A stretch of DNA of 64,000 bases from Deltaproteobacteria bacterium (GCA_029860075.1 JAOUBX010000011.1:11031-75030); one strand, 5' to 3'. Shown: positions 18,480-57,594, counted from the first letter of the stretch. The notes: generated from the sequence alone by a model not told the origin. Numbers and translations: made by a program.

Positions 18480-18685
18480 AGTTACCGTCCTAAATCATTA
18501 TTGAAGAAAAATTGAAACTACTCATTTAATCCTTACTTCCCCTCTTTAGCAAAGGGGGGCGATGGGGAGATTTGAATAGCTATACCTTACTTAAATCCCC
18601 CTTAATTCCCCTTTACCAAAGGGGGAGAGTCCACATATCTTTCTCAGACTAATCCCATTACAATCTGCGCTTAGTTAATCATTAT

Positions 18686-19456: not shown

Positions 19457-19470
19457 TTCTTAAGCTCTCC

Positions 19471-20280: not shown

Positions 20281-20304
20281 CTAAATACTCCTTACTTGAA
20301 CGGC

Positions 20305-24681: not shown

Positions 24682-24882
24682 ATGAATAAAATTTTTGAAT
24701 CAAAGTGGGAGGCTATGACTCTAAACGATTGGATCGGGCTTGCTGTAACGGCAGTTATATTTATCTTCATGATAGTTGCTTACATCTATGTACTTAAACC
24801 AAATAACCGCGAAAAACTGGAAGCCCGCAGAAATATCATAATGAAGGAAGATTCCTCAGACAAGGATGGTGCAGATGACTGA
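24682..24882 (+). CDS. CcoQ/FixQ-like single-TM small subunit
   Basis: 66 aa, one TM helix (IGLAVTAVIFIFMIVAYIYVL). Overlaps the start of the CcoP-like gene, as in ccoQP. Confidence 0.5.
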   Translation: MNKIFESKWEAMTLNDWIGLAVTAVIFIFMIVAYIYVLKPNNREKLEARRNIIMKEDSSDKDGADD

Positions 24883-38298: not shown

Positions 38299-38379
38299 GT
38301 CAACCCTCTCTTAAAATTTTCAATTGTTTATTGACGATTGTTGAATGATTTTTCAACCATCAATCGTCAATCTTCAATC

Positions 38380-39369: not shown

Positions 39370-39396
39370 TTATATCTCCCTTATCGTATCAATTCT

Positions 39397-40371
39397 TTAT
39401 TTTTGAGCTTTTTGCATAATCAGGTAGGAAAGCACATCCTGATAATCCTTTACCGTAAGAGATTCGGAAAGGTCATCAGGCATTACGCTTGTACTCTCAT
39501 CTATCTTTGATTCTTTAATATCACTCTTGCTGATAGTGACAACGTCTCCATCTGCCTTGGTGATGTCGATTTCCGTCGCTTCATCACGGGTTTTAATCCC
39601 TTTGAACTGTCGCCCTTCTTTATTAACAACGACGTGGGTCTCAAAACCTTCAACAATAACAGTACCGGGCTGAACGATAGATTCGGAAATATACTTAAGA
39701 CCCTTCTTGCCTATTGCGGAAAGTTGGGGGCCTATTTCTCCTCCCTCGTCACCTATCATATGACACTCACTGCAGTTGTCCTCAAAAACAATCTTCCCGT
39801 TACCGGGGTCACCGCCTCCGGCTGCTGAAGCTGCTGCGATTTTGTCGTAATATTTTTTTGTTACCTCACTTGGATTATTGAGAGCATCCATGTCGAGATC
39901 TCCACCCTGACTCTGAAGATAAACAACAACGGCCTTGATCTCGTCGAGGCTTAGCGATATTGGCGGAGCAAAGACGATTGCCATCTCATTTTTATAGCCA
40001 TCTACCACGAAAGCTCCCGGATCGGCCAGACTCTCTACAAGATAATCGGTAGGTGAATAATTTTTTCCCGTCTGCTCACTGCGCTCTTTGGCCCTCTCAA
40101 CCGCTCTCGCACCGATGGGCAATGCAAACTTTTCTCCGAACTGACCCAAATTGGGACACCTGACGGCGCTTCCCCTGTCCCCAAGGCTGTGGCAGGTAAA
40201 GCAACGACCTTTACCCCAGAAGATGGCTTCACCCCCTTCGGGAGTGACCTCTACTGCACCGCCTCCACCCTTTTTTTCACCACCCGTAAGGTCGGTTATG
40301 GCCTTTCCTACATAAAGAAAGGTGGCCAGAACCAACAGCAGAAATATAAAAACATTAAGAACAGCTTTCAT
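39397..40371 (-). CDS. Dihaem class-I cytochrome c (paralogue of 19471..20280)
   Basis: Signal anchor, CFTCH and CSECH. Confidence 0.8.
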   Translation of the reverse strand: MKAVLNVFIFLLLVLATFLYVGKAITDLTGGEKKGGGGAVEVTPEGGEAIFWGKGRCFTCHSLGDRGSAVRCPNLGQFGEKFALPIGARAVERAKERSEQTGKNYSPTDYLVESLADPGAFVVDGYKNEMAIVFAPPISLSLDEIKAVVVYLQSQGGDLDMDALNNPSEVTKKYYDKIAAASAAGGGDPGNGKIVFEDNCSECHMIGDEGGEIGPQLSAIGKKGLKYISESIVQPGTVIVEGFETHVVVNKEGRQFKGIKTRDEATEIDITKADGDVVTISKSDIKESKIDESTSVMPDDLSESLTVKDYQDVLSYLIMQKAQK

Positions 40372-40503
40372 TGATAACCTCCAAAGAATAGTTCTGAAAA
40401 TGACTTGTAATCTCCCCTAACCCCTCTTTTTCTAAGAGGGGAACATTGCTCTTTCCCCCTTAGAAAAAGGGGGATTAAGGGGATTTTCAAATAACTTTAT
40501 TAA

Positions 40504-42785: not shown

Positions 42786-43331
42786 CTATTTCTCTCTTTT
42801 AAGCGCCCTTACAAACCTCACCACACCGGCAATCTCTTCCACCTCCATCTCTTCATCGTCGATATTCGTTTTACTGCAGATATTGATGGGTTCCGTCAAA
42901 TCCTTCAGTTTATCGTTAGAAGGAGTCTTGCTATTCAAAGGAGGAATGGATTGACTATGGCATTCCAGGCAAATTTCTTCAAAGAGCTTGTCACCTGTAA
43001 CGGCCCTGGCATAGAGGATCATGCTCTTCATTTCATCCTCGTTAATAACGTCCTTCCAGGGAGGCATTAGCTCTCCCTTTCCCTCCTTGATCGTCTTTAA
43101 AAGTTCCTCCTCCTTTTTATCGAGCCGTTCACCCTTTGCAAAGTTAGGGGCTTCAGGAAGAACTGAATTACCGTCAAAGCCATGACAGGCTGCACAGTTT
43201 TCTTCATAGATGGCTCTAGCCTTTTTTATTATTTCAAGTTTCTCTACCCACTTTGCATCTTCAGCGGCAAAGGCCGAACCTGTAAAAGCAGCTGCTAATA
43301 ACAATGCCAGAATGATAATTACTCTATTCAT
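42786..43331 (-). CDS. Periplasmic dihaem cytochrome c
   Basis: 181 aa, signal peptide, CAACH and CLECH. Confidence 0.8.
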   Translation of the reverse strand: MNRVIIILALLLAAAFTGSAFAAEDAKWVEKLEIIKKARAIYEENCAACHGFDGNSVLPEAPNFAKGERLDKKEEELLKTIKEGKGELMPPWKDVINEDEMKSMILYARAVTGDKLFEEICLECHSQSIPPLNSKTPSNDKLKDLTEPINICSKTNIDDEEMEVEEIAGVVRFVRALKREK

Positions 43332-43343
43332 CTTTTCTCCTCA

Positions 43344-45665
43344 TTAGTGTAATGTACCGGAAAGAGCCGAATAAAATTCCGCCAGTGCATCTATGCACAT
43401 CCAGTGATACTCCTCATAGTCGGCATCGTTAAGACGGTCCAGGAGTATTTGTGTACAATGTGGATCTTCCAGCCGTCTCAATGTCCTTGCAGCCTCACGT
43501 CGCAACTCCCCGCCATGATCAAATATGACATTCAGTACTTTTCCGCTAAGCTCCCCTTCTTCTTCATCTTCTGTTACAACATTGAGGGCCGCCCTCTTTA
43601 CCACCATCTCTTCATCATCAAGAGCCCTGGATAACAAATCCACTGCTGTCGAACCCTCCATAGAAGCGGCCACATTCAAGGCTCTCTCACGTACAAAGTA
43701 GTCAGGGTCACCTATTAGTATATGGAGCTTTTCTTCGATAACACTCTGAGCACCGAAACCCTTAAGGGCATCTATTGAAGCAAGTCTTACATCTCTGCTA
43801 TCAGATTCAAGCCCTTCCAGTACTAAAGGAAGTGACTTTTCATCACCTATCCTGCCAAGAGAAGTAATAACCTCCTTACAGATATCAGGATTATCAATAT
43901 CCACAGCCTCAGTTAAAGTCTCAAGCGCCTTTTCGCACTTCCTCTCTCCAAGGAGCCTTGCAGCAATAAGCTTCACTCTTATCTCTCTCTGTTCCATCTC
44001 AAAAGACCTGGCTTCCTCTTCAAGTTTGCGCTTTATCTCTCTATTCTCCTGAGCTTCAGGGGAAACCTGCGAAGCCATGATGGAAGCAAGAGTGGAAACA
44101 TCCTCCTTACCGATAGCCACCTCTCCATCGCCCAACAATTCTTCTACAGAGGGTTTATCTTCTTCACTCTCTTCCTCAATGGAGTTCATATCTTCCGATA
44201 TATGAGACACTTCACATTGGTCAACTGTTTCAGTCACAAAACCTTCTAGTAAGATATCTGCAAGTGTTTCCACTGATCCCTCAGGGTCTATCTCGGCAAG
44301 TGCCGTCATGGAAGCGATGGAAACGTTATCCTTCTTATCAAAAACAGTCCTCTTCAGCACCTCTACAGGATCAATGACTTCTTCCACACTTTCCACTGCC
44401 TCACCCTCTTCGTCTGAGGCATCTAAAAGCTCTTCTTCCCCAACAGTCTCATCCACCTCCCGGGACTCCATTCCCTTGCCCTTCAACATCCTGCCTAGAG
44501 CTATTGCAGCCTGAACTCTCACATTATTATCCATCTTTTCGTCATCGAGCATGGAGGCAATCTTTTCCTCAGGGCCCTCTTTAGCTATTTTTCCCAATGC
44601 TAAAACAGCGGCATAATTAAGGTCTCTATCATCGACGGAAAGATACATGCTGATTAGATCTACATATTCAGGACTGCCGATTTCACCCAGTATTTTCAGA
44701 ACTTTAGTGATGAGATAAGGGCTTGGGGAGTCACTCATCAACTTGATTAGTTTTTCGGCAACAGCCTTACCACGCATTTTTCCAAGAATTTCTGCTGCTT
44801 CCTCACAGACATTACTGTTGTTATCAGACAAAAGCATGGTAAGAGGAACAATGATCTGGGGACTCTTTGTGGCGCCCAGTGCCCTCGCCGCATATATGCG
44901 CACGTCCGGATCTTCATCCAGTAGCGCGTTACTCAATGATTCAAGAAGCCGGTTATCTATTTCACCGTTTTCGTTAGTTATAAAGTCAAGTTCTATAAAG
45001 GCCTTGGCCGCCCTTCTTCTGGCTAACCTTCCACCCTTTTCAAGTTGCTCAAGGAGGAAGTTCGTAGCCCTGGTACTGCTCAATTTGGCAAGCACCCTGA
45101 ATCCTTTTTCCTGGAGGTCTTCATATTCCTCATTGAGAAGAAGTTCTATTACACCATCGGCGGCATTTTCATCACCCAATTCACCGAGAGCATCGAGGGC
45201 CTGGCTCTGCACTTCCCATGCAGGAGCAAATTCCATATCATCCCCTTCACCGTCATAGATATCGAGGTAGCCATCCTCTTTGATACATTCCATCAAGACG
45301 TTAAGGGCCTTTTTCGACCTCATTTTACCCAGCGCGATAACGGCCTGGATACGCACCTCTCCATCGGGGTCATTCTTTAAGGTATCGATCAAAGGATCGA
45401 CGGCATCTTCCATATTCAAATTACCGAGCGCTTGCGCCGCATCCATACTCACATCAGGATCACTATCGTGCAAGGCATCTATAAGCTTATTTATGGATTC
45501 TTTATCAATAGCCTTCATTTTTTCAAGAGCCCTTACAGCACAACACCTTGAAAGAGAATTATCTCTGCTCAATACTTCCTGAAGATTTTCTATCACTGTT
45601 TCACGGTTTGCTTTTTTTATACTGTTCATAGGTTCCGTCATTTCAGTTATCATAATTAAGACCAT
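43344..45665 (-). CDS. HEAT/PBS-lyase-type repeat protein
   Basis: 773 aa of repeated ~30-aa units (AVRALGKIG-like) with acidic linkers. No catalytic motifs. Sits 67 bp downstream of the aioA-like gene. Confidence 0.6.
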   Translation of the reverse strand: MVLIMITEMTEPMNSIKKANRETVIENLQEVLSRDNSLSRCCAVRALEKMKAIDKESINKLIDALHDSDPDVSMDAAQALGNLNMEDAVDPLIDTLKNDPDGEVRIQAVIALGKMRSKKALNVLMECIKEDGYLDIYDGEGDDMEFAPAWEVQSQALDALGELGDENAADGVIELLLNEEYEDLQEKGFRVLAKLSSTRATNFLLEQLEKGGRLARRRAAKAFIELDFITNENGEIDNRLLESLSNALLDEDPDVRIYAARALGATKSPQIIVPLTMLLSDNNSNVCEEAAEILGKMRGKAVAEKLIKLMSDSPSPYLITKVLKILGEIGSPEYVDLISMYLSVDDRDLNYAAVLALGKIAKEGPEEKIASMLDDEKMDNNVRVQAAIALGRMLKGKGMESREVDETVGEEELLDASDEEGEAVESVEEVIDPVEVLKRTVFDKKDNVSIASMTALAEIDPEGSVETLADILLEGFVTETVDQCEVSHISEDMNSIEEESEEDKPSVEELLGDGEVAIGKEDVSTLASIMASQVSPEAQENREIKRKLEEEARSFEMEQREIRVKLIAARLLGERKCEKALETLTEAVDIDNPDICKEVITSLGRIGDEKSLPLVLEGLESDSRDVRLASIDALKGFGAQSVIEEKLHILIGDPDYFVRERALNVAASMEGSTAVDLLSRALDDEEMVVKRAALNVVTEDEEEGELSGKVLNVIFDHGGELRREAARTLRRLEDPHCTQILLDRLNDADYEEYHWMCIDALAEFYSALSGTLH

Positions 45666-45732
45666 TTCATCACATTTGTTAGAAAAATCAGGGGCACCCC
45701 CACATAAGGATGCCCCTGAAAGAAAACAGACT

Positions 45733-48450
45733 CTAGGCGATATCCCTCCGGATGAAGCTCATCTGGGAGAAGCTCTTCTTGAAAGGCGATTCACCGATCT
45801 TCTTAACCTTACCCATGGCAATCTTATAGTTGTAGTTCATTGTCATAGGATCAGGTACTCTTGGTGCAATCGAATTGAATGCCTGCTTTTTATCAAGGAA
45901 GTTGGTAAAGGTTACCCCCTTCTTAATGGCAGGTGTTACGATTGCCACGGCAGAGAACTCACCTGATTCAAACTTGAGGTGTCCACGCTTTTTGAGACCG
46001 TTGAAGTACATGTCGTCACCTTTCACACCAAGGTTGAAGTCCTTCTGGATTGCAACCCTGTCGTTGGTTACGGTCACCATATCACCGGACTCGATACCCC
46101 TCTTCTTAGCATCAGCAGGGTGAATCTCGATGAAGTTCATGGGCCATCTCTGTTGGATATAGGCACGTCTTTCCGTATCATCGAATCCGGATTGCCATAT
46201 CTCGTTGATACGACCGGCAGTTACCCAGAGTTCACCGTCCCTCGGCTTGAGATAGTCATGGTACTGGTTCCAATAGAAATTCCATGGCGTTTTCATCAGG
46301 TTCAGCTTACCTGTCTGTGATTTAAAGGCCATAATGTTCTTCTTGATAACCGTAGGACCCTCGGGACCGGTTTCCGGTATGGCGAACTTCTTATTTTTAT
46401 TACGGTCATACCAGTGCTGCCTCGGTGTTTCCATGATCTTGCCGTCAACCCAGAGAAGCGGCGCCTGATAACCCTGCGTACCTCTCTTGGCCAGGAAGTC
46501 ATGAGCTTTCATACCGGCCTTCCTTGCGGCAACCTTAATTGCGTTGAAGTCAGACCTGTGACCACGGCTGAACCTGCAAGCCTCCTCGAATACATCGTTG
46601 GAGTCTTTCCAGTCGTAACCGTCAAAGCCCATCTTCTTGGCAAACATAGAGACGATCTTCCAGTCTGGTTTGGCGTCACCCGGTGCATCGTAGAACTTAG
46701 AATAAAGACGGATACGCCTTTCACCGTTCTCCCTGGTAAAGCTGTCTTCACCCCATGTTGCGGCAGGAAGAATAATGTCGGCATACTGGCTGCCAACGGG
46801 ATCGATGAGGTAGATGTCCTGATTGACGACAACCATACCACCACTGTCTACCCTCTTCTTGAGTGTTTCGATAATTTCTTTCTTATCGAAGCTCTTTACC
46901 TGGTTCGGATTGAGCTTGACCTGTCTCTTAAAGCTATCCTGCATAGCTGCAGAACCGGCCATGGCCTGCATCCAGGTCGTTCCAACTACATAGGCAAATC
47001 GCAGGTGGCCCGCTTCAACCCAGCGGTCAAGATCCAGTCTATGACGCCTTCTGCCGGGGAACTTGTAAGGTGACCTGATACCGGGGTAAGGGCCACCGCC
47101 CCTGCCGCCACGCTGATGTCCACCGAGACGGGTTACAGCACTTCCGGGCTTTCCACCTGCACCGCAGATAATTCCAAGTACTCCAACTGAGGCAGTGTTA
47201 CCCCAGTTGTTTGACCAGTAATTACCTTTCTCGATACCGATTGTAAGCTTACGGCGCTTGCCTCTTTTCGGCTTAGCCATTAATTCAGCTGCTTTGTAGA
47301 TCTTCTTTACATCAATTCCGCAAATCTTGGCAGCAACCTTCGGATCGGCTGACTTTTCACCGAGGTTCCACTTTTTATAAGCTTCGATGCCGTTAACGAC
47401 GCCGATCTTACCCCATGTGGTTCTCCACTGCCATGGTGTATTACGCGTTCCCTGGCCGAATCCGGAGTCCGTCTCCCACTTATTGTTAACAAAGCGCTTG
47501 ATGAATTCCTTGTCTTCCCATCCTTTTTCAAGGATGACCCTTGCAATGGCGTTGTGCAGGGCCTGATCGGTTCCAGGCGTAATATCGATCCAGAGGCCGC
47601 CATTCTTTTCTATATGGGCAACACCGGCAGTTCTTCTGGGGTTGACCATGATAACCTTGGTCTTGTTTTTCTGGATTCCTTTGAGAATCCACTCATTCCA
47701 GACGATTGTTTTCGCTTCATAGGGATCGGTCCCTGAAAGGAAAATTGTGTCTGCAAGAGAGAAGTCCTCGTAGGCTGCGGGAAAGATGTCATAACCGATA
47801 TCTACCCAACCCGGAACGGAGTTAACGATTGCCGGGTGGTCATGATGTGCCACAGCCGGCGTCCCGATATTCCTGAAAGCAAGCTTGGTAAGTGCAAAAG
47901 TGTTCTCATAGTATTGGTAACTAAAGTACTTGAGACCCCATGCATTCTCACCGTGATTTTTAAGAACATGCCTCGAAACATCGGCCATAATGTCCAGGGC
48001 AAAGTCCCAGGTAACAGGCATGAGCGTATCATGAACCCTTACCATAGGATATTTGAGCCTGTCCTGGGTAGGGCTCTTAGGATTGTATACTTTCTGGGCA
48101 ATACATCCGCCACGTATACTGGCGTCTCCGCCGACGTTAACGACCTTTGAGTCACCATCAGGTACAACGGCAATATTGTAAAGCTTACCTTTATAGGCAG
48201 CCTGTGTTACCTGGGTTGGACTTACCCAGTTACCGGATCTTCCCGGAATGCTCGTAGAACCGGGCAGAACAAAATCCCTGTTTAGAGCATTCTGGCTCTT
48301 CTTGGGTCCACCGGGCTTTGCATTTGCAGGCCAGCGGTAGACCTTGTAGCCGCATGCAACGATACAGTAATCGCAACATGTAGTGAGCACCTCTGCGTTT
48401 TTAGGCGGAAGAGGCACTCTGTCTTCTGGCTGATAATGTGGTGTTGACAT
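45733..48450 (-). CDS. aioA: Arsenite-oxidase-type molybdopterin oxidoreductase large subunit (AioA-like)
   Basis: 905 aa. N-terminal RVPLPPKNAEVLTTCCDYCIVACGYKVYRWP closely matches the AioA 3Fe-4S motif region (CxxCxxxC...). Also NGERRIRL and EIWQS blocks shared with AioA. Preceded by its Rieske partner. Confidence 0.8.
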   Translation of the reverse strand: MSTPHYQPEDRVPLPPKNAEVLTTCCDYCIVACGYKVYRWPANAKPGGPKKSQNALNRDFVLPGSTSIPGRSGNWVSPTQVTQAAYKGKLYNIAVVPDGDSKVVNVGGDASIRGGCIAQKVYNPKSPTQDRLKYPMVRVHDTLMPVTWDFALDIMADVSRHVLKNHGENAWGLKYFSYQYYENTFALTKLAFRNIGTPAVAHHDHPAIVNSVPGWVDIGYDIFPAAYEDFSLADTIFLSGTDPYEAKTIVWNEWILKGIQKNKTKVIMVNPRRTAGVAHIEKNGGLWIDITPGTDQALHNAIARVILEKGWEDKEFIKRFVNNKWETDSGFGQGTRNTPWQWRTTWGKIGVVNGIEAYKKWNLGEKSADPKVAAKICGIDVKKIYKAAELMAKPKRGKRRKLTIGIEKGNYWSNNWGNTASVGVLGIICGAGGKPGSAVTRLGGHQRGGRGGGPYPGIRSPYKFPGRRRHRLDLDRWVEAGHLRFAYVVGTTWMQAMAGSAAMQDSFKRQVKLNPNQVKSFDKKEIIETLKKRVDSGGMVVVNQDIYLIDPVGSQYADIILPAATWGEDSFTRENGERRIRLYSKFYDAPGDAKPDWKIVSMFAKKMGFDGYDWKDSNDVFEEACRFSRGHRSDFNAIKVAARKAGMKAHDFLAKRGTQGYQAPLLWVDGKIMETPRQHWYDRNKNKKFAIPETGPEGPTVIKKNIMAFKSQTGKLNLMKTPWNFYWNQYHDYLKPRDGELWVTAGRINEIWQSGFDDTERRAYIQQRWPMNFIEIHPADAKKRGIESGDMVTVTNDRVAIQKDFNLGVKGDDMYFNGLKKRGHLKFESGEFSAVAIVTPAIKKGVTFTNFLDKKQAFNSIAPRVPDPMTMNYNYKIAMGKVKKIGESPFKKSFSQMSFIRRDIA

Positions 48451-48462
48451 AGTATATACCTC

Positions 48463-49002
48463 CTATCCTTTCAAGTTATCGTACCGGCCATAAATAAGAC
48501 CGATAAGTCCGACGGCATAAATGTCGTCTCCCTCGACTTCGAGGAGAACCTGTGGAAGGCTCTGCGTTGCATGACCGGTGACGATCATACCGTGCCTCGT
48601 CAGGTCAAAGGTAGACTGATGGAAAGGACAGGGTCCGAGAGCTTTGTCTGCGGACTGATAGAACCTTCCCATGGGGCCACCCATATGTGTACAGAGCGTA
48701 TTAAAAGCCACAACATCTTTCTTTCTTCCTATCCCGCCTCCGGCAGGCGTCCCGAGCTTAACAAGTATGCTCTGGGAATTTTTGCCGTCATCGGGATATT
48801 TGAAAGTCAAAGGCTTGTTGGCCTTCAGCTTACTGAGCCTTCCGATCTTCTTTTTCGGATAGGTAGTCACTTCAGCCGCTATGGCCTTTCCTTCCAGACC
48901 GGGAATATTGTTGAGAAGTACCGTAGTTGCTACGGCAGCACCGCTCCCGATAAGAAAGGCCCTTCGGCTTATGCAACGGTCATCATTTTTACTATTTTCC
49001 AT
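48463..49002 (-). CDS. aioB: Rieske [2Fe-2S] small subunit with Tat signal (AioB-like)
   Basis: 179 aa, twin-arginine motif RRAFLIGSG. Rieske boxes CTHMGG and CPFHQS. Confidence 0.8.
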   Translation of the reverse strand: MENSKNDDRCISRRAFLIGSGAAVATTVLLNNIPGLEGKAIAAEVTTYPKKKIGRLSKLKANKPLTFKYPDDGKNSQSILVKLGTPAGGGIGRKKDVVAFNTLCTHMGGPMGRFYQSADKALGPCPFHQSTFDLTRHGMIVTGHATQSLPQVLLEVEGDDIYAVGLIGLIYGRYDNLKG

Positions 49003-49015
49003 AGCTTAAACCTCC

Positions 49016-50260
49016 TTAATATTTGATGCCCTGGGCATCGAGGTAGAACTCGATTCCAGTGATTTTGGCCTTCTTCTGGGTCAGGCGCTTTACATCAGGG
49101 AAGGGCTTCATTTTGGGAACCTTGACGGAACCGATCTTGATTTCCTTACCACTGATCTCTTCGAGGAAAGCAACGAGAGCTTCCTTCTCACCATCAGTCA
49201 AGCCGAGAGGTTTGAGGATCTTCGTCTTGGTACCGTACTTTTTGGTAAAGTCGTTCTCACCACCACCATCGTTGTAGAAATCAATGACTTCTTCGAGGGT
49301 AAAGAACTGACCGGCATGCATATAAGGCGCCGTATACTTGAGATAACGAAGCGGTGCTGTCCTGAATTTACCGAGATCCTTTTTTTGCTTGGTTTGGAAA
49401 TAGAGGCCCAGGTCGTCTTTGTAGTTCCTGTATTTGTCCTCATAGACACCCTTGGCATAAAGCTCAAACCTGAAAGTGATCTGATTAAGACCTATCGTCT
49501 CCCACTCTTCAGGCCTCGGTACACCGATATTATAAAACTTCTCGTCAGTCAGCATAGGACCATTGTGACACTCAATACAGTTGGCCTTACCTTCGAAAAG
49601 CTTCATCCCTTTAACGGCCTTCTTGGAAAGGGCGCTCTTCTTACCTTTCAGATACTTATCAAGTGGAGACTCCCACTTGCCGACCTGCGAAAGCGCACCA
49701 CGCTCAAAAGCAGCAATTGCCATATAAGCCAGTGGACGAACATTAGGCTGCTCTGCACCGTAGACCTTTCTGAAAAGCTCTACATACTCAGGTGTTTGAC
49801 GAAGACGCTCATCCATCACGTCCAGTTCACCATTACCGGCAACACCACCCTGTGCGGCAGATTTAGCCTGCTTTTCGAGACTCGTTGTCGATCCGGCCCA
49901 GAAAACCTTGTTCAGGTACCCTGTATTGACAACGGTCTGGCAGTTTCTCCAGTGGACCGTACCGGGATAACCACGGCAGATCGGTTCGTTAAATCCCCAA
50001 CCCTGTTCGGGATGGTGACAGTCTACGCAAGCCAGACTTGCGTCACCTGAAATTTTAGGATCGAAATAGAGCATTTTTCCCAGCTCGATCTTTTCAGGCG
50101 TCATAGAGTTATCCATGGGATCCGGCACAGGGCCCAGAGGGGCGAGTGGCGGATCAAAATCAGGATCTCCCTTTGCAAAGGTGGACGAAGCAGCCATTAA
50201 AAAAGCAAGGCATGTCACCACCATCAGAGGGAGGGCCACTTTATAAATTCTTTTATTCAT
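49016..50260 (-). CDS. Dihaem cytochrome c peroxidase / MauG family protein
   Basis: 414 aa, signal peptide, CVDCH and CIECH in CCP-family context (GNGELDVMDER, PYMHAGQF). Confidence 0.8.
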   Translation of the reverse strand: MNKRIYKVALPLMVVTCLAFLMAASSTFAKGDPDFDPPLAPLGPVPDPMDNSMTPEKIELGKMLYFDPKISGDASLACVDCHHPEQGWGFNEPICRGYPGTVHWRNCQTVVNTGYLNKVFWAGSTTSLEKQAKSAAQGGVAGNGELDVMDERLRQTPEYVELFRKVYGAEQPNVRPLAYMAIAAFERGALSQVGKWESPLDKYLKGKKSALSKKAVKGMKLFEGKANCIECHNGPMLTDEKFYNIGVPRPEEWETIGLNQITFRFELYAKGVYEDKYRNYKDDLGLYFQTKQKKDLGKFRTAPLRYLKYTAPYMHAGQFFTLEEVIDFYNDGGGENDFTKKYGTKTKILKPLGLTDGEKEALVAFLEEISGKEIKIGSVKVPKMKPFPDVKRLTQKKAKITGIEFYLDAQGIKY

Positions 50261-50275
50261 GATTAAACCTCCCGT

Positions 50276-51403
50276 CTAATTCTTTTTATTGAGCCAGTCT
50301 TCGATCACAGGATATTCCTGCGGGATCTTGGGTGGATCAATTTTTCCAGGTTGTTTAGGACTGCTTAAACTCTCCAGGAAGGCAACGAGTTGCTTTTTCT
50401 CGCCGGAGCTGAGTCCTAACTTCTTAAGTTCCCTTGCTAGAGGATCATCATGCCCGCCACCGTTATTGTAGAATTCAACAACATCCTTCAATGACTTAAT
50501 GGTGCCGTTATGCATGTAAGGAGCGGTGTACTTGAGTTCCCTCAGCGTAGGGGTAATGAACTTTCCTACGTCAGCATATTTTTTGCTGGTAAAGAAATAA
50601 CCCACGTCTCTTCTCCACTGTCCCCCTTTGGGAACACCGTATGTGGTCAGAACCGCACGGTAGGTGGCATGCCTGACGGCATTTTTGAACACTTCGAGGT
50701 TCTCGGCAACACCCGTATTATGCGGTTTGCCATCTGAAAAGTAGGAGCCGTTGTGGCACTTGATGCAGCCTGCCTTACCTTTGAAGAGCTTCATACCGGC
50801 CTTGGCATCTTTTGACATATTACCTTTGTCGAAAGGTGCGTCACCGGTGGAAACAAGCGTTTCCACATAGGCGATCAATGCTTTCCTTGCCTTACCGGAA
50901 GAGCACTCACCGTTGAAGTTTTCCTTACACATTTTCACGTAAGTAGGATCCTGTTTCATCCGCTCATGAAGTATTCTCATGTCCAGGTTCAGGATAGTCG
51001 TTTCAGTGATCTGGTCCCTCATCACATCGTTCAGGCTGGAACCCATGCGGCCGTCCCATCCCCATCCCACATCCGAGAAGCCACTCTTATAAACGACATT
51101 TAAAAGCGTTGCCGAATTCCTGAAATAATCGGAACCGGGATATGCCTTTGACAGTGGCTGTCCATCACCGAAACCCTTTCTCGGATCGTGGCACGTAGCA
51201 CAGCTGATAGCGCCATCACCGGAAATCCTCGCGTCATAGAAAAGCCGCTTGCCCATTTCAACCATGGACGCCTTAGGGGCTTTCCTTTTCGGCAGGGGTC
51301 CGATGTCTTCACCGGCCATAGCTACCGTGGGAGCAGCAATGAAAAGAGTCACTGCACCCAACAGAGCGAGACCGGACATGGCTAAGATCTTTTTCTTCCC
51401 CAT
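50276..51403 (-). CDS. Dihaem cytochrome c peroxidase / MauG family protein (tandem paralogue)
   Basis: 375 aa, CATCH and CIKCH, PYMHNG motif. Confidence 0.8.
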   Translation of the reverse strand: MGKKKILAMSGLALLGAVTLFIAAPTVAMAGEDIGPLPKRKAPKASMVEMGKRLFYDARISGDGAISCATCHDPRKGFGDGQPLSKAYPGSDYFRNSATLLNVVYKSGFSDVGWGWDGRMGSSLNDVMRDQITETTILNLDMRILHERMKQDPTYVKMCKENFNGECSSGKARKALIAYVETLVSTGDAPFDKGNMSKDAKAGMKLFKGKAGCIKCHNGSYFSDGKPHNTGVAENLEVFKNAVRHATYRAVLTTYGVPKGGQWRRDVGYFFTSKKYADVGKFITPTLRELKYTAPYMHNGTIKSLKDVVEFYNNGGGHDDPLARELKKLGLSSGEKKQLVAFLESLSSPKQPGKIDPPKIPQEYPVIEDWLNKKN

Positions 51404-51421
51404 GTCTTACACCTCCATATT

Positions 51422-52201
51422 TTATTGTTTGCTAAATTCAAAGTTTGACTCGACTTTACCCTTTGCAGGCACGGTTACCTTGGTCTTCTGAACACCGAGC
51501 TTGGGGTGCCATGCCTTTAAAGTATATTCACCGGGCGGAACGTTATCAATTTTATAGGTCCCGTCGGCATTAACCACAACAGCATAGGGATGCTCAGGAG
51601 CCAGCATGAAACCGAACATGAAGTTATGGGCCTCACAGTTGAGCGATATATAGGAAGAACGTCTCGGCTTGAGCGCTTTCTCAATATCACCCTTATCAGG
51701 CTGACCGAAGTTAAAGAGCGTCCTTTTAATAGGTTTTCTTCCTTTTTTCTCGACTCCGATCATTTCACGCATATTGATGTTATGGAGTACGGAATCACTA
51801 TTCCTGATAGTAACGTTCCCCCGTTTAACTACCTGAGCCCAGGGAGTAAAACGACAGTCTTTCTGGTCGACGATATATTTGCCGCTTTTGGGAGCCGACC
51901 ACTTTTTCCCTTTTTTAACCTTGTCTAAAAAGACAAATGTCCCTCTAAGTGCGTTGCCCTTGATATCGACCCATACAACCTCACGGTAACCTTCACCGCA
52001 TATTTCAGGGTTTTTTGTAATGGATATCTTCTCCACTGCATTGTCAGGAGCAGCCCCTTTAAAGGAGACTTTACCTGATACACTGCCGCCATCACTGACG
52101 TCACCCTCTTTGTAAGCGGCATGACCTGCCATGGGCACGGCAATCATAAGGGCCGTCAAAAGTGCTGAAAGCTCAAATTTTATACCCCATTTCACTTGCA
52201 T
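51422..52201 (-). CDS. Secreted tandem beta-sandwich (CarboxypepD_reg-like) protein
   Basis: 259 aa, signal peptide. C-terminal DGTYKIDNVPPGEYTLKAWHP is typical of carboxypeptidase regulatory-like/transthyretin-like folds. Confidence 0.45.
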   Translation of the reverse strand: MQVKWGIKFELSALLTALMIAVPMAGHAAYKEGDVSDGGSVSGKVSFKGAAPDNAVEKISITKNPEICGEGYREVVWVDIKGNALRGTFVFLDKVKKGKKWSAPKSGKYIVDQKDCRFTPWAQVVKRGNVTIRNSDSVLHNINMREMIGVEKKGRKPIKRTLFNFGQPDKGDIEKALKPRRSSYISLNCEAHNFMFGFMLAPEHPYAVVVNADGTYKIDNVPPGEYTLKAWHPKLGVQKTKVTVPAKGKVESNFEFSKQ

Positions 52202-52264
52202 ACCTCCTATGCTGTTACATTAAGTCTAAACATGGCGGGCCTTAGCCCGCCATAGATCGACTGA

Positions 52265-53359
52265 TTAGAATTTAACGTTCAGGTTAACCTGAATCCTTGT
52301 ACGGTCATCTGTCAGGATCGCATCTTCTTCAACATACGTTGCACCTTTAGTCGTTAAACCGGCAATAGTGTAAGTACCATCAGCGTTATCTGTTACTTTT
52401 TCCTTGGGCTCCATATCATAGTAGCGAATATCCAGGGATACTTTGCTAGCCAATTTGAAATCGGCCTGAACGCGGATACCATCGAAGTTACTCACACCGC
52501 TGCCTCCCGGATTGGGGAAGTTGTCCTGAGACGCCATACCATCGTATGGAGCGGCAAATGCCCCGACAGAGTAGCTGTAAATCCTGAATCCGAGCCAATC
52601 GGTAGCCTTAATCCTGGCCTGGGCAACGATAGCCGTCTCTTCTTCGTCTGCATCAGATTGGATGTAGTCAACAGCAACTCTCCAGATTCCACCTTTAAGC
52701 TGTGCACTGGCAGTGCTGTGGCTTTCAGCCTGCAATGCATCGCCCTCATTGGCAATAGAGACAGCCCCAAGAGCCGCCTTCAGCTTAAGCCCTCCAAAGC
52801 CTTGACCGTAAACTACCTGAGCCGTTGTATAGATTTCGTCATCATTAGGATTATCAGGTGTCCATCCAGCCTCAGTAGCAATAAAATAACCGGCATGAAA
52901 ACCAACGGGGCCAGCTTTGTAGCCCAGTTGTATACCCTCATGTTGCAAATCCCCATCAAACACAACCTCTGTAGTGGCCCAGTATTTAGCCGCTGCCTTA
53001 CCGAAAATAGCATTAAAATCAGCTACCTTGTAAGAAATGTATGCCTGGTCAAGGCCAAAGCTGTCACTGCCGCCGTCTCCAAGCGTCTGGTGAGGCGAAT
53101 TTGCAGAACCTGCCTTGGTAGCGAGACGAATCTTGAGGCCCCAGTTTTCATCAACAGTGTACTTGGCGCCAATACGTGCACGAATACGATGACGATCACG
53201 CTCCTCTTTTGTAGTATGATCCCTGTCATCCTGCTCATACCTGTAACGTACATCACCGAAAAGCGAAAGATTGTCCCCAACCTCAACGCCCGCATAAGCA
53301 GGTAACGATGAGAACCCAAACATTAAAGCCATTAATAAAACAAAAAATCTTTTAATCAT
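52265..53359 (-). CDS. Outer-membrane beta-barrel porin
   Basis: 364 aa, signal peptide, alternating amphipathic strands, C-terminal Phe (NLNVKF). No haem motif. Confidence 0.65.
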   Translation of the reverse strand: MIKRFFVLLMALMFGFSSLPAYAGVEVGDNLSLFGDVRYRYEQDDRDHTTKEERDRHRIRARIGAKYTVDENWGLKIRLATKAGSANSPHQTLGDGGSDSFGLDQAYISYKVADFNAIFGKAAAKYWATTEVVFDGDLQHEGIQLGYKAGPVGFHAGYFIATEAGWTPDNPNDDEIYTTAQVVYGQGFGGLKLKAALGAVSIANEGDALQAESHSTASAQLKGGIWRVAVDYIQSDADEEETAIVAQARIKATDWLGFRIYSYSVGAFAAPYDGMASQDNFPNPGGSGVSNFDGIRVQADFKLASKVSLDIRYYDMEPKEKVTDNADGTYTIAGLTTKGATYVEEDAILTDDRTRIQVNLNVKF

Positions 53360-53613
53360 TTATAAACTCCTTTCATGAAATTGACTTAATCCCACACCCC
53401 GAAATCGAAATTAATCTTTCTTTATCACCTCCTTTTCTCAATTCCCGGCAGTTACATGTCCCTTTAGTTTCTTCAATGAGGAGGGGAATGCATTCTCTAC
53501 CTTCACGCCCCGGTGATTACAACAAGGCGTTTTTTTATTCACATATTTCACATTTAAAAAGATGATTAACAGATGAATCAAGTAAATCTGTCATTTAATC
53601 ATGAGTGGTAATA

Positions 53614-53628
53614 GCAACAGACATGCCA
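53614..53628 (-). promoter_or_regulatory. Sigma-54 (-24/-12) promoter of the porin/CCP/aioBA operon
   Basis: The minus strand reads TGGCAT-GTCTG-TTGCT, about 255 bp upstream of the porin start. Confidence 0.7.
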
Positions 53629-53865: not shown

Positions 53866-55230
53866 CTATTTATGAAGACCATACTTCTTGAGCTTGTCCC
53901 GCAGGGTCAACCTCGATATACCGAGTAATTTGGCTGCCTTCGTTTTATTTCCACCCAGCATTTTGTGAACTTTAATAATATGATACTTTTCAACGTCTTC
54001 CAGTGTCATTTCATGGCTCTCACCCTGGGGCGCCGCTAAAGCATTTTCTCCGGCAGAAAGCAATTCACGGGGAAGTGAATCAATATCAATAGTCTCTCCT
54101 TTCGCGAGAATAACAGCCCGCTCCATAACATTTTTAAGTTCTCGTATGTTTCCCGGCCAGGAATAATTAAGAATCATATCTTTCGCTGCCCTGGAAATGC
54201 CCTTTATATTTTTTCCGAATACGGGATTATTCAAATCGATGAAATATTCAGCCAGAAAATGAACATCCTTTCTCCGCTCTCTCAAAGGAGGAAGCTCAAC
54301 AACCATGACTTTTAAGCGATAGTAAAGATCTTCCCTGAATTCGTTTTTCTTTACCATCCTTTCAAGATTCCTGTTTGTTGCTGCAATCACTCTCACATCA
54401 ACCGAGATATCACGTGTTCCCCCCAATTTTCTGAATGTCTGATATTCCAGAACCTGCAGCAATTTTGACTGCAGGTTAATGTCCATCTCTCCCATCTCAT
54501 CAAGAAAGATCGTTCCTCCATCGGCCAGTTCGAAAAGGCCTTTTTTGCTCTGCCTTGCATCGGTAAAGGCCCCTTTTTCATAACCAAAAAGTTCACTTTC
54601 AAGGAGGTTTTCCGGAATAGCGCTACAGTTAATTTTGATATAAGCATTATCCCTTCGTTCACTGTTGCAATGAATGGAATTAGCTACAAGCTCTTTGCCG
54701 GTGCCCGTCTCACCCATAATAAGAACAGATGTTTTCGGTGTCCCCGATACTATCTGAATAAATTCCCTCACAAGTTCAAAGGCAGGACTTTCTCCCACCA
54801 TATCGGGAGCGCCGAGGTCCTTCCGTTCATAGCGGCGCAACTCCACTTCCGATTTGAGCTGTCTGTTTTCCGTCGCCTTATCGACGAGAAGCTTTAACTC
54901 ATCCAGTTCAAAAGGCTTGTTTATATAATCATAAGCGCCTTCTTTCATTGCCAAAATGGCAGTTTTAACATCGGGGTAGGCTGTCATGACAATGACAGTC
55001 GTATCATCATCAAAAGACCTGAGTTCTTTCAAGACATCCAAACCGGACCTGTCGGGCAACCTCACATCGAGAAGAGCAATATCAACCTTCTGGCTTTTAA
55101 ATATCTCCAGGGCGCTGCCGGCCCTTTCCGCCGTAAGCACTCTGAAATCACGACGAACAAAGACCTCGGAAAGGGTTTTTCTCATTGTCTCTTCATCTTC
55201 TACAATTAACATGGATTGTTTCATAAGCAC
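53866..55230 (-). CDS. Sigma-54-dependent response regulator (NtrC/AioR-like)
   Basis: 454 aa with receiver domain (DEE...D), AAA+ sigma-54 activator domain (GETGTGKE, GAFTDA, ESELFGYEKGAF) and C-terminal Fis-type HTH. Confidence 0.9.
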   Translation of the reverse strand: MLMKQSMLIVEDEETMRKTLSEVFVRRDFRVLTAERAGSALEIFKSQKVDIALLDVRLPDRSGLDVLKELRSFDDDTTVIVMTAYPDVKTAILAMKEGAYDYINKPFELDELKLLVDKATENRQLKSEVELRRYERKDLGAPDMVGESPAFELVREFIQIVSGTPKTSVLIMGETGTGKELVANSIHCNSERRDNAYIKINCSAIPENLLESELFGYEKGAFTDARQSKKGLFELADGGTIFLDEMGEMDINLQSKLLQVLEYQTFRKLGGTRDISVDVRVIAATNRNLERMVKKNEFREDLYYRLKVMVVELPPLRERRKDVHFLAEYFIDLNNPVFGKNIKGISRAAKDMILNYSWPGNIRELKNVMERAVILAKGETIDIDSLPRELLSAGENALAAPQGESHEMTLEDVEKYHIIKVHKMLGGNKTKAAKLLGISRLTLRDKLKKYGLHK

Positions 55231-55248: not shown

Positions 55249-57594
55249 CTATTCTATGTGGTTCACTGGAAATAACAGGTCAAATGTTGTGCCTTGACCA
55301 AGAATACTTTTAACTCTGATATCGCCTCCATGCTCTTCGAGAATTCGATGAACGATGGAAAGGCCAAGGCCCGTTCCATCAGATTTTGTAGTAAAAAAAG
55401 GATCAAAGACCTTACTCATATCTTCAGATGAAATCCCTTTCCCCGAATCTGCAACGGAAACCTTGAGCAGATCACCCTCTCTCTCTTCATTATTAATGAC
55501 GATGCTTCCGCCGGAGGGCATGGCGTGAATGGCATTGACAAAGAGATTGACAAAAACCTGTTTGAGCAGGTCCTCGCTTATCAATACCTCTGCCGGTTCA
55601 CTTTGCCGCTCATCTATAATGGCAATATCATTCTTCTCAGCCTCTTTTTCAATCATAAACAACACTTCATCCAGTACATAATCGATGTCACAGCTTCCAA
55701 TCTTCATGCTCACCCCGGGGTGGGCAAAGGTAGAAAATGTCTTGATAAAAAGGTTTAACCTGTCTATCTCTCTTAATATCCTGTCAATATACTCTTCCTG
55801 CTCCCCGCGAAAGGGGGCCACCTCTTCCATTGACTGGATCACTGTTTTGATTGCGGCAAGGGGGTTTCCGATTTCATGAGCAATCCCGGCAGAAAGTTCA
55901 CCAATAGTTACAAGCTTATCGGCATGAAGGAGCTGTCTTTCCATCATTATCGTTTCATCGATAAGGCGTTGACGTTCACTGACATCACGAACAACCATCA
56001 TCGATCCATAGCGTTTGCCTTCAAATGCAACAACAGCTGCACTGATCTCCAACTGCTGGGAACCGACAGTCATGGAAACCGTACTTGAGGGAACCGGTGA
56101 TTGCCCCGACAAAAGCGCCCTGATTTTGTCGGGGTTCTTGTGGCATCCCATGATAGATTGGCCTATCTTGCCGTCCTTTTTTACACCGAGGATTGCTTCG
56201 GCAGCAGGATTCATAATGAGAATATTATCTTCTTCATCAGCCACAATAATTCCTTCACTGGCACACATAAGAACACTTTCAAACTTGTTTTTCTCAAGTT
56301 CCAGTTCCTTCGTTCTCTCAGCTACTTCATCTTTAAGCGACTCATTCCAGTTAAGAAGCTTGTTTCTCGATTCCTTAAGAGTAGAGGTCATGTTGTTGAA
56401 CTGCTCCGCCAGCATCTCTATTTCATCACCTGTCTTGATATTGATTTTATGATCAAAATCACCCTCTGAGATGCTTTCAACGCCCCGGTGAAGCATAACA
56501 ATCGGTTTGGCAAAGCGCCTTGCCAGCCAGATACCCACAATAGAAACGGTAAGAATGGTAACAGCGCCTATCATCATATTCGTCTTTATAAGAGACGACA
56601 CGGAGGCAAAAATATTCTTCCTGGGATAAGCCATAGCCAGAACCCAGTAATCTTTCGAAGTCTTGTCACCGGTAAAAATGGGATGATAGGAAATAATCTC
56701 CTGCTCCGTTCTGACTGTACCGGGACTTCCCGACAAGAGATGGGCAACCACATTCTCTGAAAAGTCCCCGCTCAAATCATTGATTGATCCAATTTTAAAA
56801 GATCTGCTGTCAAGTTTAAGACTATTAATATGGGAAAGATAAAAGTGGTCTTTATTAACGAGAAAGGTCGTCCCCCCCTTGGTAATATCTGTCTTTTGAA
56901 TCTGGTTAATCAAATAGCTGGCAAAAAGATTGATAACGACAATCCCTTTTCTTTCCCGCTTGCTGTTAAAAACAGGCGTTGCCACCCTGACAACCGGTTT
57001 TTCAGGGAGTTCTATGACTCCGCGCTCAATGTTAAGATCCATGGGAGAAACGTAGCACTCCTCCGCCCAATAACTCATTGTTTTCTTAAAATAATAGCGG
57101 TCTCCCTTGAACTGGAGTTTTTCACGCGTGACAGCTTCCGCTTCATCACCCTGGTTATTGACCCTGACCAGTTCAAAGCCATTTTCGTCAATATAGCGAA
57201 TCTGATCATAATAAGGCCTTGTCTGGGCGATAATAAGAAAAGCCTTTTCCAGACGGTTTCTGAGTCTATGAAAGACTGATTTATATTCACCTTCCCCTAA
57301 ATCAACCATATCCCGCATAGCTACAGTTTTACTCAAGTACTGCACATCACGGTGTATCGTTTTCAGGAATTGCTCCGAATCATGCGCTTTAGAGGAAAGC
57401 TCAAATTCAAGGTGGCGAAGCGTTGCGTCTTCAAGAATATAAGTCGAATACTTTTCTCCGGAGATACCGGCCAGATAGGAAGGAACAATCGCAAAAAGCA
57501 GGAGGATGATAATCAGTTTCCTCCTGATGCCGAAAGGCTTTATTAACAGTTTTTTTAAATTCATTGCATTGCTAAATTCTTGATCTTTCAACAT
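55249..57594 (-). CDS. Sensor histidine kinase with periplasmic dCache-like domain, HAMP and PAS
   Basis: 781 aa with two TM helices bracketing a ~280-aa periplasmic region, HAMP, PAS, HisKA (HEIGNPL) and HATPase_c. Confidence 0.85.
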   Translation of the reverse strand: MLKDQEFSNAMNLKKLLIKPFGIRRKLIIILLLFAIVPSYLAGISGEKYSTYILEDATLRHLEFELSSKAHDSEQFLKTIHRDVQYLSKTVAMRDMVDLGEGEYKSVFHRLRNRLEKAFLIIAQTRPYYDQIRYIDENGFELVRVNNQGDEAEAVTREKLQFKGDRYYFKKTMSYWAEECYVSPMDLNIERGVIELPEKPVVRVATPVFNSKRERKGIVVINLFASYLINQIQKTDITKGGTTFLVNKDHFYLSHINSLKLDSRSFKIGSINDLSGDFSENVVAHLLSGSPGTVRTEQEIISYHPIFTGDKTSKDYWVLAMAYPRKNIFASVSSLIKTNMMIGAVTILTVSIVGIWLARRFAKPIVMLHRGVESISEGDFDHKINIKTGDEIEMLAEQFNNMTSTLKESRNKLLNWNESLKDEVAERTKELELEKNKFESVLMCASEGIIVADEEDNILIMNPAAEAILGVKKDGKIGQSIMGCHKNPDKIRALLSGQSPVPSSTVSMTVGSQQLEISAAVVAFEGKRYGSMMVVRDVSERQRLIDETIMMERQLLHADKLVTIGELSAGIAHEIGNPLAAIKTVIQSMEEVAPFRGEQEEYIDRILREIDRLNLFIKTFSTFAHPGVSMKIGSCDIDYVLDEVLFMIEKEAEKNDIAIIDERQSEPAEVLISEDLLKQVFVNLFVNAIHAMPSGGSIVINNEEREGDLLKVSVADSGKGISSEDMSKVFDPFFTTKSDGTGLGLSIVHRILEEHGGDIRVKSILGQGTTFDLLFPVNHIE

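Follow-up and report, generated by a model that had tools for sequence, protein, structure and literature searches.

A probable Idr-type iodate reductase gene cluster of a second IdrA lineage in a deltaproteobacterium

Genes and features of the locus

The window analysed here is a stretch of 64,000 nucleotides from a Deltaproteobacteria bacterium (GCA_029860075.1 JAOUBX010000011.1:11031-75030), in which six co-directional open reading frames occupy the minus strand from 45733 to 53359 (ORF calls on the window). A first-pass annotation, made from the sequence alone, had described this six-gene set, and all six ORFs were recovered at the same coordinates and on the same strand. Both motifs that it cited, TTCCDYCIVACGYKVYRWP and GGHQRGGRGGGPYPG, are present in the sequence, and the genes that it placed after the molybdoenzyme gene, for a 773-aa HEAT-repeat protein, a dihaem cytochrome c and a bd-like protein, do follow it. 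The features of the locus and its flanks are:

55249..57594, minus strand: sensor histidine kinase, 781 aa, with dCache_1, HAMP, PAS, HisKA and HATPase_c domains (Pfam)
53866..55230, minus strand: sigma-54-dependent response regulator, 454 aa, with Response_reg, Sigma54_activat and HTH_8 domains (Pfam)
53613..53628, minus strand: sigma-54 promoter-like element of the -24/-12 type, TGGCATGTCTGTTGCT (consensus match)
52265..53359, minus strand: outer-membrane porin, 364 aa, Porin_5 (Pfam), the first gene of the operon
51422..52201, minus strand: secreted beta-sandwich protein, 259 aa, with a recognised C-terminal CarboxypepD_reg/prealbumin-like domain
50276..51403, minus strand: idrP2-type dihaem cytochrome c peroxidase-like protein, 375 aa (CCP_MauG)
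49016..50260, minus strand: idrP1-type dihaem cytochrome c peroxidase-like protein, 414 aa (CCP_MauG)
48463..49002, minus strand: idrB, Tat-exported Rieske [2Fe-2S] small subunit, 179 aa (similarity to IdrB, invariant motifs)
45733..48450, minus strand: idrA-type Mo-bisPGD catalytic subunit, 905 aa (Rieske_3 3Fe-4S domain, Molybdopterin, Molydop_binding)
45688..45719, minus strand: hairpin resembling an intrinsic terminator (stem and T-tail)
43344..45665, minus strand: cytoplasmic HEAT-repeat protein, 773 aa, accessory (seven HEAT_2 matches, Pfam)
42786..43331, minus strand: dihaem cytochrome c, 181 aa (Cytochrome_CBB3, two CXXCH)
36673..42615, minus strand: bd-like (OR-N-type) module, a 703-aa polytopic CydA-like protein with cytochromes c of 324, 329 and 541 aa (Pfam)

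The kinase, a probable oxyanion (iodate) sensor, has a counterpart upstream of the idr genes of Pseudomonas sp. SCT, with which it shares 33% identity along the entire protein, the periplasmic dCache domain as well. In the idr loci of SCT, Azonexus and Caenispirillum, the same sigma-54 regulator gene is found at the corresponding place. The element TGGCATGTCTGTTGCT differs at one position from TGGCAC-N5-TTGCW and stands roughly 250 nt 5' of the porin start, in a 506-nt intergenic region; because this consensus pattern is no more frequent across the window than chance would give, it is the position of the element that argues for it. At the other end of the operon, the hairpin (45719-45688; a 14-bp stem with 8 GC pairs and a TTTTT tail) lies in the 67-nt gap directly 3' of idrA and has the appearance of a strong terminator.

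For the small subunit, identity reaches 51-52% with the IdrB proteins of SCT and Azonexus, compared with 38-43% for AioB. It has a twin-arginine motif (SRRAFL) and the IdrB-type motif TFDLTRHGM, and its RR-x-F, C-x-H and C-x2-H motifs are invariant in the alignment. Both CCP/MauG proteins carry two CXXCH motifs and, by sequence inspection and alignment, Sec-type leaders, the 375-aa protein having a signal-like N-terminus. Of the two CCPs encoded at the SCT idr locus, the 375-aa protein scores higher with the first (277 vs 212 bits) and the 414-aa protein with the second (331 vs 223 bits); to judge by these scores, the two pairs are positionally orthologous. The series CCP-CCP-Rieske precedes the molybdoenzyme gene in 59/59 relatives, counting those with enough DNA. 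At first pass the operon had been called unusual. It is no unexplained novelty, however, but corresponds to the published idrP2-idrP1-idrB-idrA cluster, an order which is characteristic of iodate reductase clusters, while peroxidases are absent from AioA neighbourhoods (PMC8692401, PMC10989891).

The catalytic subunit and its relatives

The kinship with AioBA, through a 3Fe-4S motif and a Tat-Rieske partner, had been recognised correctly, and the closest solved structures to the large subunit are those of AioA. The motif is N-terminal (C-x2-C-x3-C), and the subunit has no signal peptide by sequence inspection and alignment. Aligned from end to end with the UniProt-named IdrA of Pseudomonas sp. 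SCT, the subunit shows 48% identity (858 bits), as against 29% with Ensifer AioA (301 bits), and tblastn searches of plasmids give a bimodal result, with idr-type loci at 50-52% and aio loci at 27-32%. In neighbour-joining trees (100 bootstraps, not maximum likelihood), a clade of IdrA sequences that excludes AioA has 99% support and comprises two sister lineages, G1, which holds SCT (100%), and G2, which holds the window protein (97%). The AioA clade, with 100% support, leaves the window protein outside, and sister lineages without CCP neighbours (intermediates) branch outside the IdrA clade. A surrogate IdrA profile HMM, which was built from G1 sequences and is distinct from the published profile with its cutoff of 640 bits (PMC8692401), gives the window protein 1157 bits, the intermediates 616-894 bits and AioA 254-407 bits.

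The residues at the substrate site of AioA, which we take to be H195, E203, R419 and H423 (A. faecalis numbering, 1G8K), are conserved in the window protein at H195, R419 and H423. In the same alignment, where AioA has N196, R197, E203 and E425 the window protein has D, H, S and R, respectively, and N196, R197 and E425 are invariant across all AioA sampled. The window protein has the IdrA-type D196 and R425 (HD..., GGHQR), not the AioA-type residues (HNR...E, GGHQE). The Gly/Arg-rich insertions that had been singled out are present, but they align with GGHQRGGLSAGG... in the validated IdrA and are, by this alignment, a trait of the IdrA family and not a peculiarity of the window protein.

Oxidation of arsenite or antimonite, the default at first pass, is not supported, because the protein clusters apart from AioA, within the IdrA clade, and has different residues at the Mo site, two observations that the first pass had itself named as speaking against its reading; the accompanying caution that the substrate might not be arsenite was well placed. 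An AioBA-type oxidase that passes As(III) electrons through a cytochrome c or copper protein to the bd-like oxidase would agree with the shared 3Fe-4S and Rieske architecture, the three conserved residues, the AioA structures and the terminal-oxidase-like module nearby. The NCBIfam arsenite oxidase models also accept the window protein, both TIGR02693 (420.5, cutoff 359.05) and TIGR02694 (131.1, cutoff 95.65), but this is non-discriminating because the validated SCT IdrA bears the same NCBI name and, judging by it, passes too. Against this reading stand the low identity to AioA, the tree, the lost AioA residues, the two CCP genes (PMC8692401) and the gene content, and we consider it highly improbable. 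The true aio loci examined for comparison hold a PhnD-like AioX, a kinase with AioR, a cytochrome c, moeA and ars genes, whereas aioX, an AioS-type kinase, ars genes and moeA were not found among the window genes scanned. The lack of aioX and moeA had been reported at first pass; the cytochrome c gene, reported as lacking too, is in fact present at 43331-42786, after the HEAT-repeat gene.

Lineage G2, its accessory genes and a proposed mechanism

The iodate reductase system has been known since 2020. We propose that the locus is probably an iodate reduction island, a cluster of genes for a periplasmic iodate reductase of the Idr type, based on the similarity to IdrA, the clade, the active-site residues, the gene order and the SCT-like regulators. 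Iodate itself we infer as the substrate by extension from G1 enzymes: all the confirmed iodate reducers that could be placed belong to G1 (SCT IdrA alone was placed directly), and those confirmed up to 2022 form one small clade that includes SCT (PMC8801600). In the literature searched, no G2 member was found to have been tested for iodate reduction (PMC8801600). G2-type organisms are already regarded as putative iodate reducers (PMC8692401, PMC10989891). Thiomargarita nelsonii and Sedimenticola thiotaurini are named as idr carriers in a supplement (PMC8692401); of these two, the one placed here is T. nelsonii, whose sequence (locus L079) falls within G2. Beside the window organism, G2 systems occur in many sulfur-oxidising Gammaproteobacteria and symbionts, with Sedimenticola hydrogenitrophicus and Vibrio sp. 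THAF190c among the cultured carriers. Going beyond the literature searched are the G2 lineage, its own active-site loop and its recurrent accessory genes, which are those for the beta-sandwich protein, the HEAT-repeat protein, the porin and the linked bd-like/cytochrome c module.

Porin homologues adjoin idr clusters in 11/80 related loci, and HEAT-repeat homologues lie downstream of idrA in 17/80; sequence inspection finds no TM segment or signal in the HEAT-repeat protein. The 181-aa dihaem cytochrome c is a candidate electron donor to IdrB, and in SCT, Azonexus and Sulfurivermis, too, idrA has a small cytochrome c gene after it. The beta-sandwich protein has the motif His140-Asn141 ... Cys189-x2-His192-x2-Met195, which fits the ligand pattern of type 1 copper proteins (His ... 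Cys-x(n)-His-x(m)-Met, the first His being followed by Asn) and makes it a candidate mononuclear copper electron carrier. Among 40 close homologues and 35 from the related loci, the latter as low as 25% in identity, H140, C189, H192 and M195 never vary, whereas three distant homologues have Ser in place of N141; the G1 locus of Sulfurivermis fontis also encodes a homologue with the motif. Pfam gave no cupredoxin match at E up to 1 and a PDB profile search no match; Foldseek returned generic beta-sandwiches only, and the AF2 models are poor in the domain concerned (pLDDT 46-66, 59.7).

The 703-aa protein of the bd-like module has a weak match to Cyt_bd_oxida_I (residues 43-341), no CXXCH and 18 hydrophobic TM-like segments, a crude count in which some overlap, so that there are roughly 14-17 helices. 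Three cytochrome c genes adjoin it, the 541-aa product having an EB_dh haem-b domain. Of the 27 G2 loci whose sequence extends at least 9 kb to either side, 20-21 have the module; the five G1 loci examined lack it. The continuity of the operon with this module, as first drawn, is weakened by the terminator-like hairpin, yet the physical linkage is conserved in relatives.

Might G2 enzymes act on something other than iodate? The active-site loop next to the Mo site is lineage-specific (HDHPAIVNS in the window protein, HDKCSATND in G1-type IdrA), with K197 replaced by H/T/N and D203 by S relative to G1. In some genomes, that of Sedimenticola hydrogenitrophicus among them, the two lineages occur side by side, which hints at non-redundant roles, and one MAG carries G2 twice. 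Together with the distribution of the bd-like module and the small clade of confirmed reducers, these observations would suit a G2 reductase for bromate, chlorate, periodate, selenate or another high-potential oxyanion or oxidant, with G1 as the true iodate enzyme. However, the two lineages are sisters with 99% support, share D196 and R425, and have the same four-gene core and homologous dCache kinases and sigma-54 regulators; the field already counts G2-type organisms as putative iodate reducers, and no neighbouring gene points to an alternative substrate. We therefore regard a non-iodate substrate as unlikely.

For an iodate reductase, the following mechanism can be proposed, in which we infer how the electrons travel and what the porin, beta-sandwich, HEAT-repeat and bd-like proteins do. 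The dCache kinase and the sigma-54 activator would switch on the sigma-54 promoter upstream of the porin gene, giving a transcript of porin, beta-sandwich, idrP2, idrP1, idrB and idrA that would stop at the hairpin. IdrB would carry IdrA (Mo-bisPGD, 3Fe-4S) into the periplasm via Tat. Electrons from the respiratory chain would pass by way of a c-type cytochrome, the beta-sandwich protein or both to the Rieske cluster, the 3Fe-4S cluster and Mo, where IO3- would be reduced, following published models, to HIO and finally to I-, while the two dihaem peroxidase-like proteins would remove H2O2 or another reactive by-product.

A bolder and rather doubtful idea is that G2 Idr forms a self-contained respiratory module, in which the reductase is wired to a dedicated, copper-type beta-sandwich carrier and an OR-N bd-like oxidase/cytochrome c complex. 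One possible reason is that iodate reduction releases O2, H2O2 or HIO, to be consumed by the oxidase and the peroxidases, which, if true, would settle the disagreement between two published mechanisms. Another is that G2 enzymes possibly use a different substrate.

Comparison with known systems

The AioBA enzymes of Alcaligenes faecalis (1G8K) and Rhizobium NT-26 (4AAY) share with the window enzyme the fold family, the 3Fe-4S motif, a Tat-exported Rieske partner, Ala at the usual Mo-ligand position and H195, R419 and H423. The window subunit differs in being ~29% identical and ~80 residues longer, with N196D, R197H, E203S and E425R, and its locus has peroxidase genes and other regulators and no AioX; the proposed reaction also runs the opposite way, as a reductase.

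Members of the OR-N family have a CydA-like core with 10-14 TM helices, no quinol-binding Q-loop and no haem c motif, and are found in operons with alternative electron donors (Murali et al., bioRxiv 10.1101/2021.01.16.426971). The 703-aa protein is alike in its CydA-like N-terminal helices, its many TM helices, its lack of a haem c motif and its operon with cytochromes c as alternative electron donors, the OR-N label being given here by description, not by subfamily. The literature searched makes no mention of a linkage between OR-N and idr clusters.

Closest are the IdrABP1P2 systems of Pseudomonas sp. SCT, Denitromonas sp. IR-12, Aromatoleum toluclasticum TC-10 and Azoarcus sp. DN11, which agree with the window in the four core genes and their order and have an IdrA with the 3Fe-4S motif and no signal peptide, a Tat-Rieske IdrB, two Sec-type dihaem CCPs, a dCache kinase and sigma-54 regulator upstream, a cytochrome c downstream and the HD... 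and GGHQR signatures. Unlike them, the window enzyme stands at 48% identity in the sister lineage G2, with the loop HDHP..NS in place of HDKC..ND, and in its locus, which has no moaA or moeA nearby and is linked to the bd-like/cytochrome c module, porin and beta-sandwich genes separate the regulator from idrP2 and a HEAT-repeat gene separates idrA from the cytochrome c gene.

Assignment of the molybdoenzyme to the IdrA family

We propose that the locus is probably an idr-type iodate reduction island of a kind easily misnamed as an arsenite oxidase, a reading drawn from sequence comparison. Six tightly packed ORFs (gaps of 12-63 nt) occupy 53359-45733 on the minus strand, with regulators upstream and further redox genes downstream.

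Genes of the locus
First of the six ORFs, minus strand: outer-membrane porin of the Pfam family Porin_5, 364 aa
51422-52201, minus strand: secreted beta-sandwich protein, 259 aa
Minus strand: two CCP_MauG dihaem proteins, 375 and 414 aa, with two CXXCH apiece
Minus strand: Rieske protein, 179 aa, with an SRRAFL twin-arginine leader
45733..48450, minus strand: molybdopterin oxidoreductase, 905 aa, with an N-terminal Rieske_3 (3Fe-4S) domain
53866-55230, upstream of the cluster: sigma-54-dependent response regulator
55249-57594, upstream of the cluster: dCache/HAMP/PAS histidine kinase
Downstream: 773-aa HEAT-repeat protein, dihaem cytochrome c, 703-aa bd-like membrane protein and three more c-type cytochromes

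Checking ORFs, domains and neighbouring genes showed that the first-pass annotation had described the sequence accurately, down to motifs and downstream genes. Its default of arsenite or antimonite oxidation has phylogeny, active-site residues and gene context all against it, and on these three grounds we reject the arsenite oxidase reading. What favours that reading is that NCBIfam arsenite-oxidase models pass weakly on the 905-aa protein (420.5 bits, where the cutoff is 359) and that its closest solved structures are AioA (about E-78). The protein is 48% identical over its whole length (858 bits) to P0242, the validated IdrA of Pseudomonas sp. SCT (UniProt A0A391NTR7, “Iodate reductase subunit IdrA”), and 29% identical, with many gaps, to Ensifer AioA (301 bits). 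SCT IdrA was reached through cluster members; a name search did not find the Denitromonas IR-12 IdrA. A tblastn search of all plasmids was bimodal. Three loci matched at 50-52% identity, and the two that were inspected (Vibrio and Azonexus) have a CCP-CCP-small-large arrangement; the true aio loci among the matches listed came in at 27-32%. Exact copies of the window protein were found in metagenome assemblies only.

In a neighbour-joining tree (77 sequences, 100 bootstraps) of 50%-identity representatives from an exhaustive search plus NapA/Fdh-like outgroups, the protein falls within a CCP-linked IdrA clade (99% bootstrap), apart from the AioA clade (100%). IdrA splits into G1 (100%; SCT, Azonexus) and G2 (97%; Thiomargarita, Thiodiazotropha, Sedimenticola, Vibrio, Methylomirabilales and the window protein, with 91% support for the subclade of the latter). 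Against a profile made from G1, the window protein scores 1157 bits, G2 1074-1342, lineages intermediate between IdrA and AioA 616-894, and AioA 254-407. Alignment of the active site shows that the window protein has lost four AioA-invariant residues and has a lineage-specific loop, and that it has D196 and R425, the IdrA signatures, in common with IdrA.

Active-site residues (A. faecalis numbering)
AioA (all sampled): loop 195-203, H195-N-R-P-A-Y-N-S-E203; motif 419-425, R419..H423-Q-E425
IdrA lineage G1: loop 195-203, H-D-K-(C/P)-(S/A)-x-T-N-D; motif 419-425, R..H-Q-R
Window protein: loop 195-203, H-D-H-P-A-I-V-N-S; motif 419-425, R..H-Q-R

We reject the idea that the Gly/Arg-rich insertions are peculiar to this protein, because the same segment aligns in the validated SCT IdrA.

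As for gene context, idrABP1P2 is conserved in all idrA-clade neighbourhoods and peroxidases are absent from those of aioA (PMC8692401), the gene order being idrP2, P1, B, A (PMC10989891). Two peroxidase genes beside an Aio-like BA pair are the signature of an iodate reductase cluster. Across 80 genomic relatives, 59 loci extend 4 kb or more upstream, and all 59 have CCP-CCP-Rieske there; each of the two window peroxidases is the positional orthologue of its SCT counterpart. At 51-52% identity the window Rieske subunit is closer to IdrB than to AioB (38-43%), and RR-x-F, C-x-H and C-x2-H are invariant in the alignment. The immediate sister lineage of IdrA also has a peroxidase neighbour; three intermediate lineages have no peroxidase genes as neighbours. 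Intermediate loci with Rieske and Mo genes and without peroxidases are L091 (protein P0370), L090 (P0372) and L092 (P0375), one of which adjoins Copper-bind cupredoxin and multicopper-oxidase genes.

Pipelines name P0242 and most homologous matches “arsenate reductase (azurin) large subunit” or “arsenite oxidase large subunit”. Public pipelines thus misname even the experimentally validated enzyme, because TIGR02693 passes its cutoff on IdrA-type proteins.

Transcription and regulation

The 67-nt gap that follows idrA contains a T-tailed hairpin with a 14-bp stem (45719-45688), which makes porin to idrA the likely transcription unit; the HEAT-repeat and cytochrome c genes likely form the next, with a weaker hairpin following the cytochrome c gene ahead of the bd-like gene. 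The two predicted terminators weaken the earlier suggestion of a single run into the bd-like operon. Below the regulator gene, the intergenic region has a sigma-54-type element (TGGCATGTCTGTTGCT, 53628-53613). Counts of sigma-70 promoters and sigma-54 patterns over the region are not above chance, and for this single site, with 1 mismatch, it is only the position that is suggestive. Over its full length, sensor domain included, the window kinase shares 33% identity with that of SCT.

Lineage G2 and its accessory genes

All experimentally confirmed iodate reducers belong to one small clade (PMC8801600), which corresponds to G1 of our tree. The window protein is in G2, a widespread lineage for which we found no record of a biochemical test in the literature searched. 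Of the 27 G2 loci that have 9 kb or more on both sides, 20-21 carry the bd-like module, 15 the beta-sandwich gene, 11 the HEAT gene and 4 the porin. The bd-like module is absent from all five G1 loci examined, and the beta-sandwich gene is present in one of them (Sulfurivermis). Some genomes hold several idrA paralogues (loci L073, L075, L080 and L093 of Sedimenticola hydrogenitrophicus; L012 and L040 of one MAG); in S. hydrogenitrophicus, G2 copies occur together with a G1 copy whose CCPs are enlarged (506-527 aa). Such paralogues suggest functional differentiation between IdrA lineages.

Just upstream of the idr kinase, 57673-59472 encodes a protein of 599 aa that combines two Usp domains with a rubredoxin-like Cys motif and two PCP_red domains. 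The protein is found again close to idr clusters of several unrelated genomes (loci L001, L004, L020, L058, L063, L079 of Thiomargarita nelsonii, and L094), among them the G1 locus of Sulfurivermis fontis.

The beta-sandwich family, found in both IdrA lineages (window 51422-52201; locus L094, 6380-7102), shows unusually high conservation (62-73% identity for the best 120 database matches) and is not named in the idr literature we found. All homologues down to 25% identity keep His140-Asn141...Cys189-x2-His192-x2-Met195, apart from a Ser in place of Asn141 in three distant ones; Cys68 and Cys116 co-vary. The His...Cys-x2-His-x2-Met spacing is that of the amicyanin type 1 copper site. A permissive Pfam scan, PDB profile searches and Foldseek PDB searches gave no cupredoxin match, leaving the conserved ligand-like motif standing by itself, and two AF2 models, one of the whole protein (pLDDT 71.6) and one of the middle domain (pLDDT 59.7), are poor in the motif domain. 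For these reasons it is offered only hypothetically, as a candidate copper electron carrier.

The 703-aa protein has a weak CydA-like N-terminal part, no haem c motif and, by a crude count, 18 hydrophobic, TM-like segments, some overlapping (~14-17 helices). It would fit the OR-N bd-like family, which lacks a quinol site and occurs alongside alternative electron donors (bioRxiv 10.1101/2021.01.16.426971). In the window (36673-42615) it is grouped with three cytochromes c, of which one contains an EB_dh haem-b domain. The module, also present in L002-L012, L020, L026, L028, L039, L041, L049, L066, L068, L076 and other related loci, is downstream of idr in the window and upstream in sulfur-oxidising Gammaproteobacteria and symbionts. 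A second, paralogous module at 16947-22161, with 23010-23639 and 24866-25741, combines a CydA-like protein of 618 aa with two cytochromes c and an EB_dh-containing dihaem cytochrome of 510 aa; genes for a FixP-like cbb3 subunit and a SCO1/SenC copper chaperone lie near it. It is adjoined at 14163-16834 by an AhbD/NirJ-like radical-SAM haem synthase and protoporphyrinogen oxidase, consistent with a haem-rich respiratory region.

Proposed mechanism and relation to known idr systems

How might the island work? Iodate would pass the outer membrane, perhaps via the porin, and be sensed by the dCache kinase. Tat would export IdrAB, whose Rieske cluster would take electrons from cytochrome c and/or the copper-type protein; IO3- would be reduced at Mo and reactive by-products removed by IdrP1 and IdrP2. 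The linked bd-like module may supply electrons, or consume O2, H2O2 or HIO, a question that bears on the mechanistic disagreement between the two published Idr models (PMC8692401).

Iodate reduction shapes the oceans’ iodide/iodate balance, and hence ozone chemistry, and is relevant to radio-iodine clean-up. Once these genes are recognised as idr, the metabolism read from this genome, and from many genomes of sulfur oxidisers and symbionts, has to be corrected. In addition, the candidate copper protein, porin, HEAT protein and linked bd-like module provide handles on the electron route to Idr and on the reactive intermediates that it makes. The literature searched yielded nothing on idrA linked with cupredoxins, bd-like oxidases or symbionts.

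The SCT idr locus (kinase with dCache and HAMP, sigma-54 regulator, CCP, CCP, Rieske, IdrA, cytochrome c, moaA and onwards) resembles the window in its kinase, sigma-54 regulator and CCP-CCP-Rieske-IdrA order. G2 loci differ from the textbook G1 island in their recurrent accessories, the bd-like module being the most frequent. As read from its sequence, the putative idr island is known in kind; its lineage is unvalidated, and the conserved set of accessory genes found with it is undescribed.
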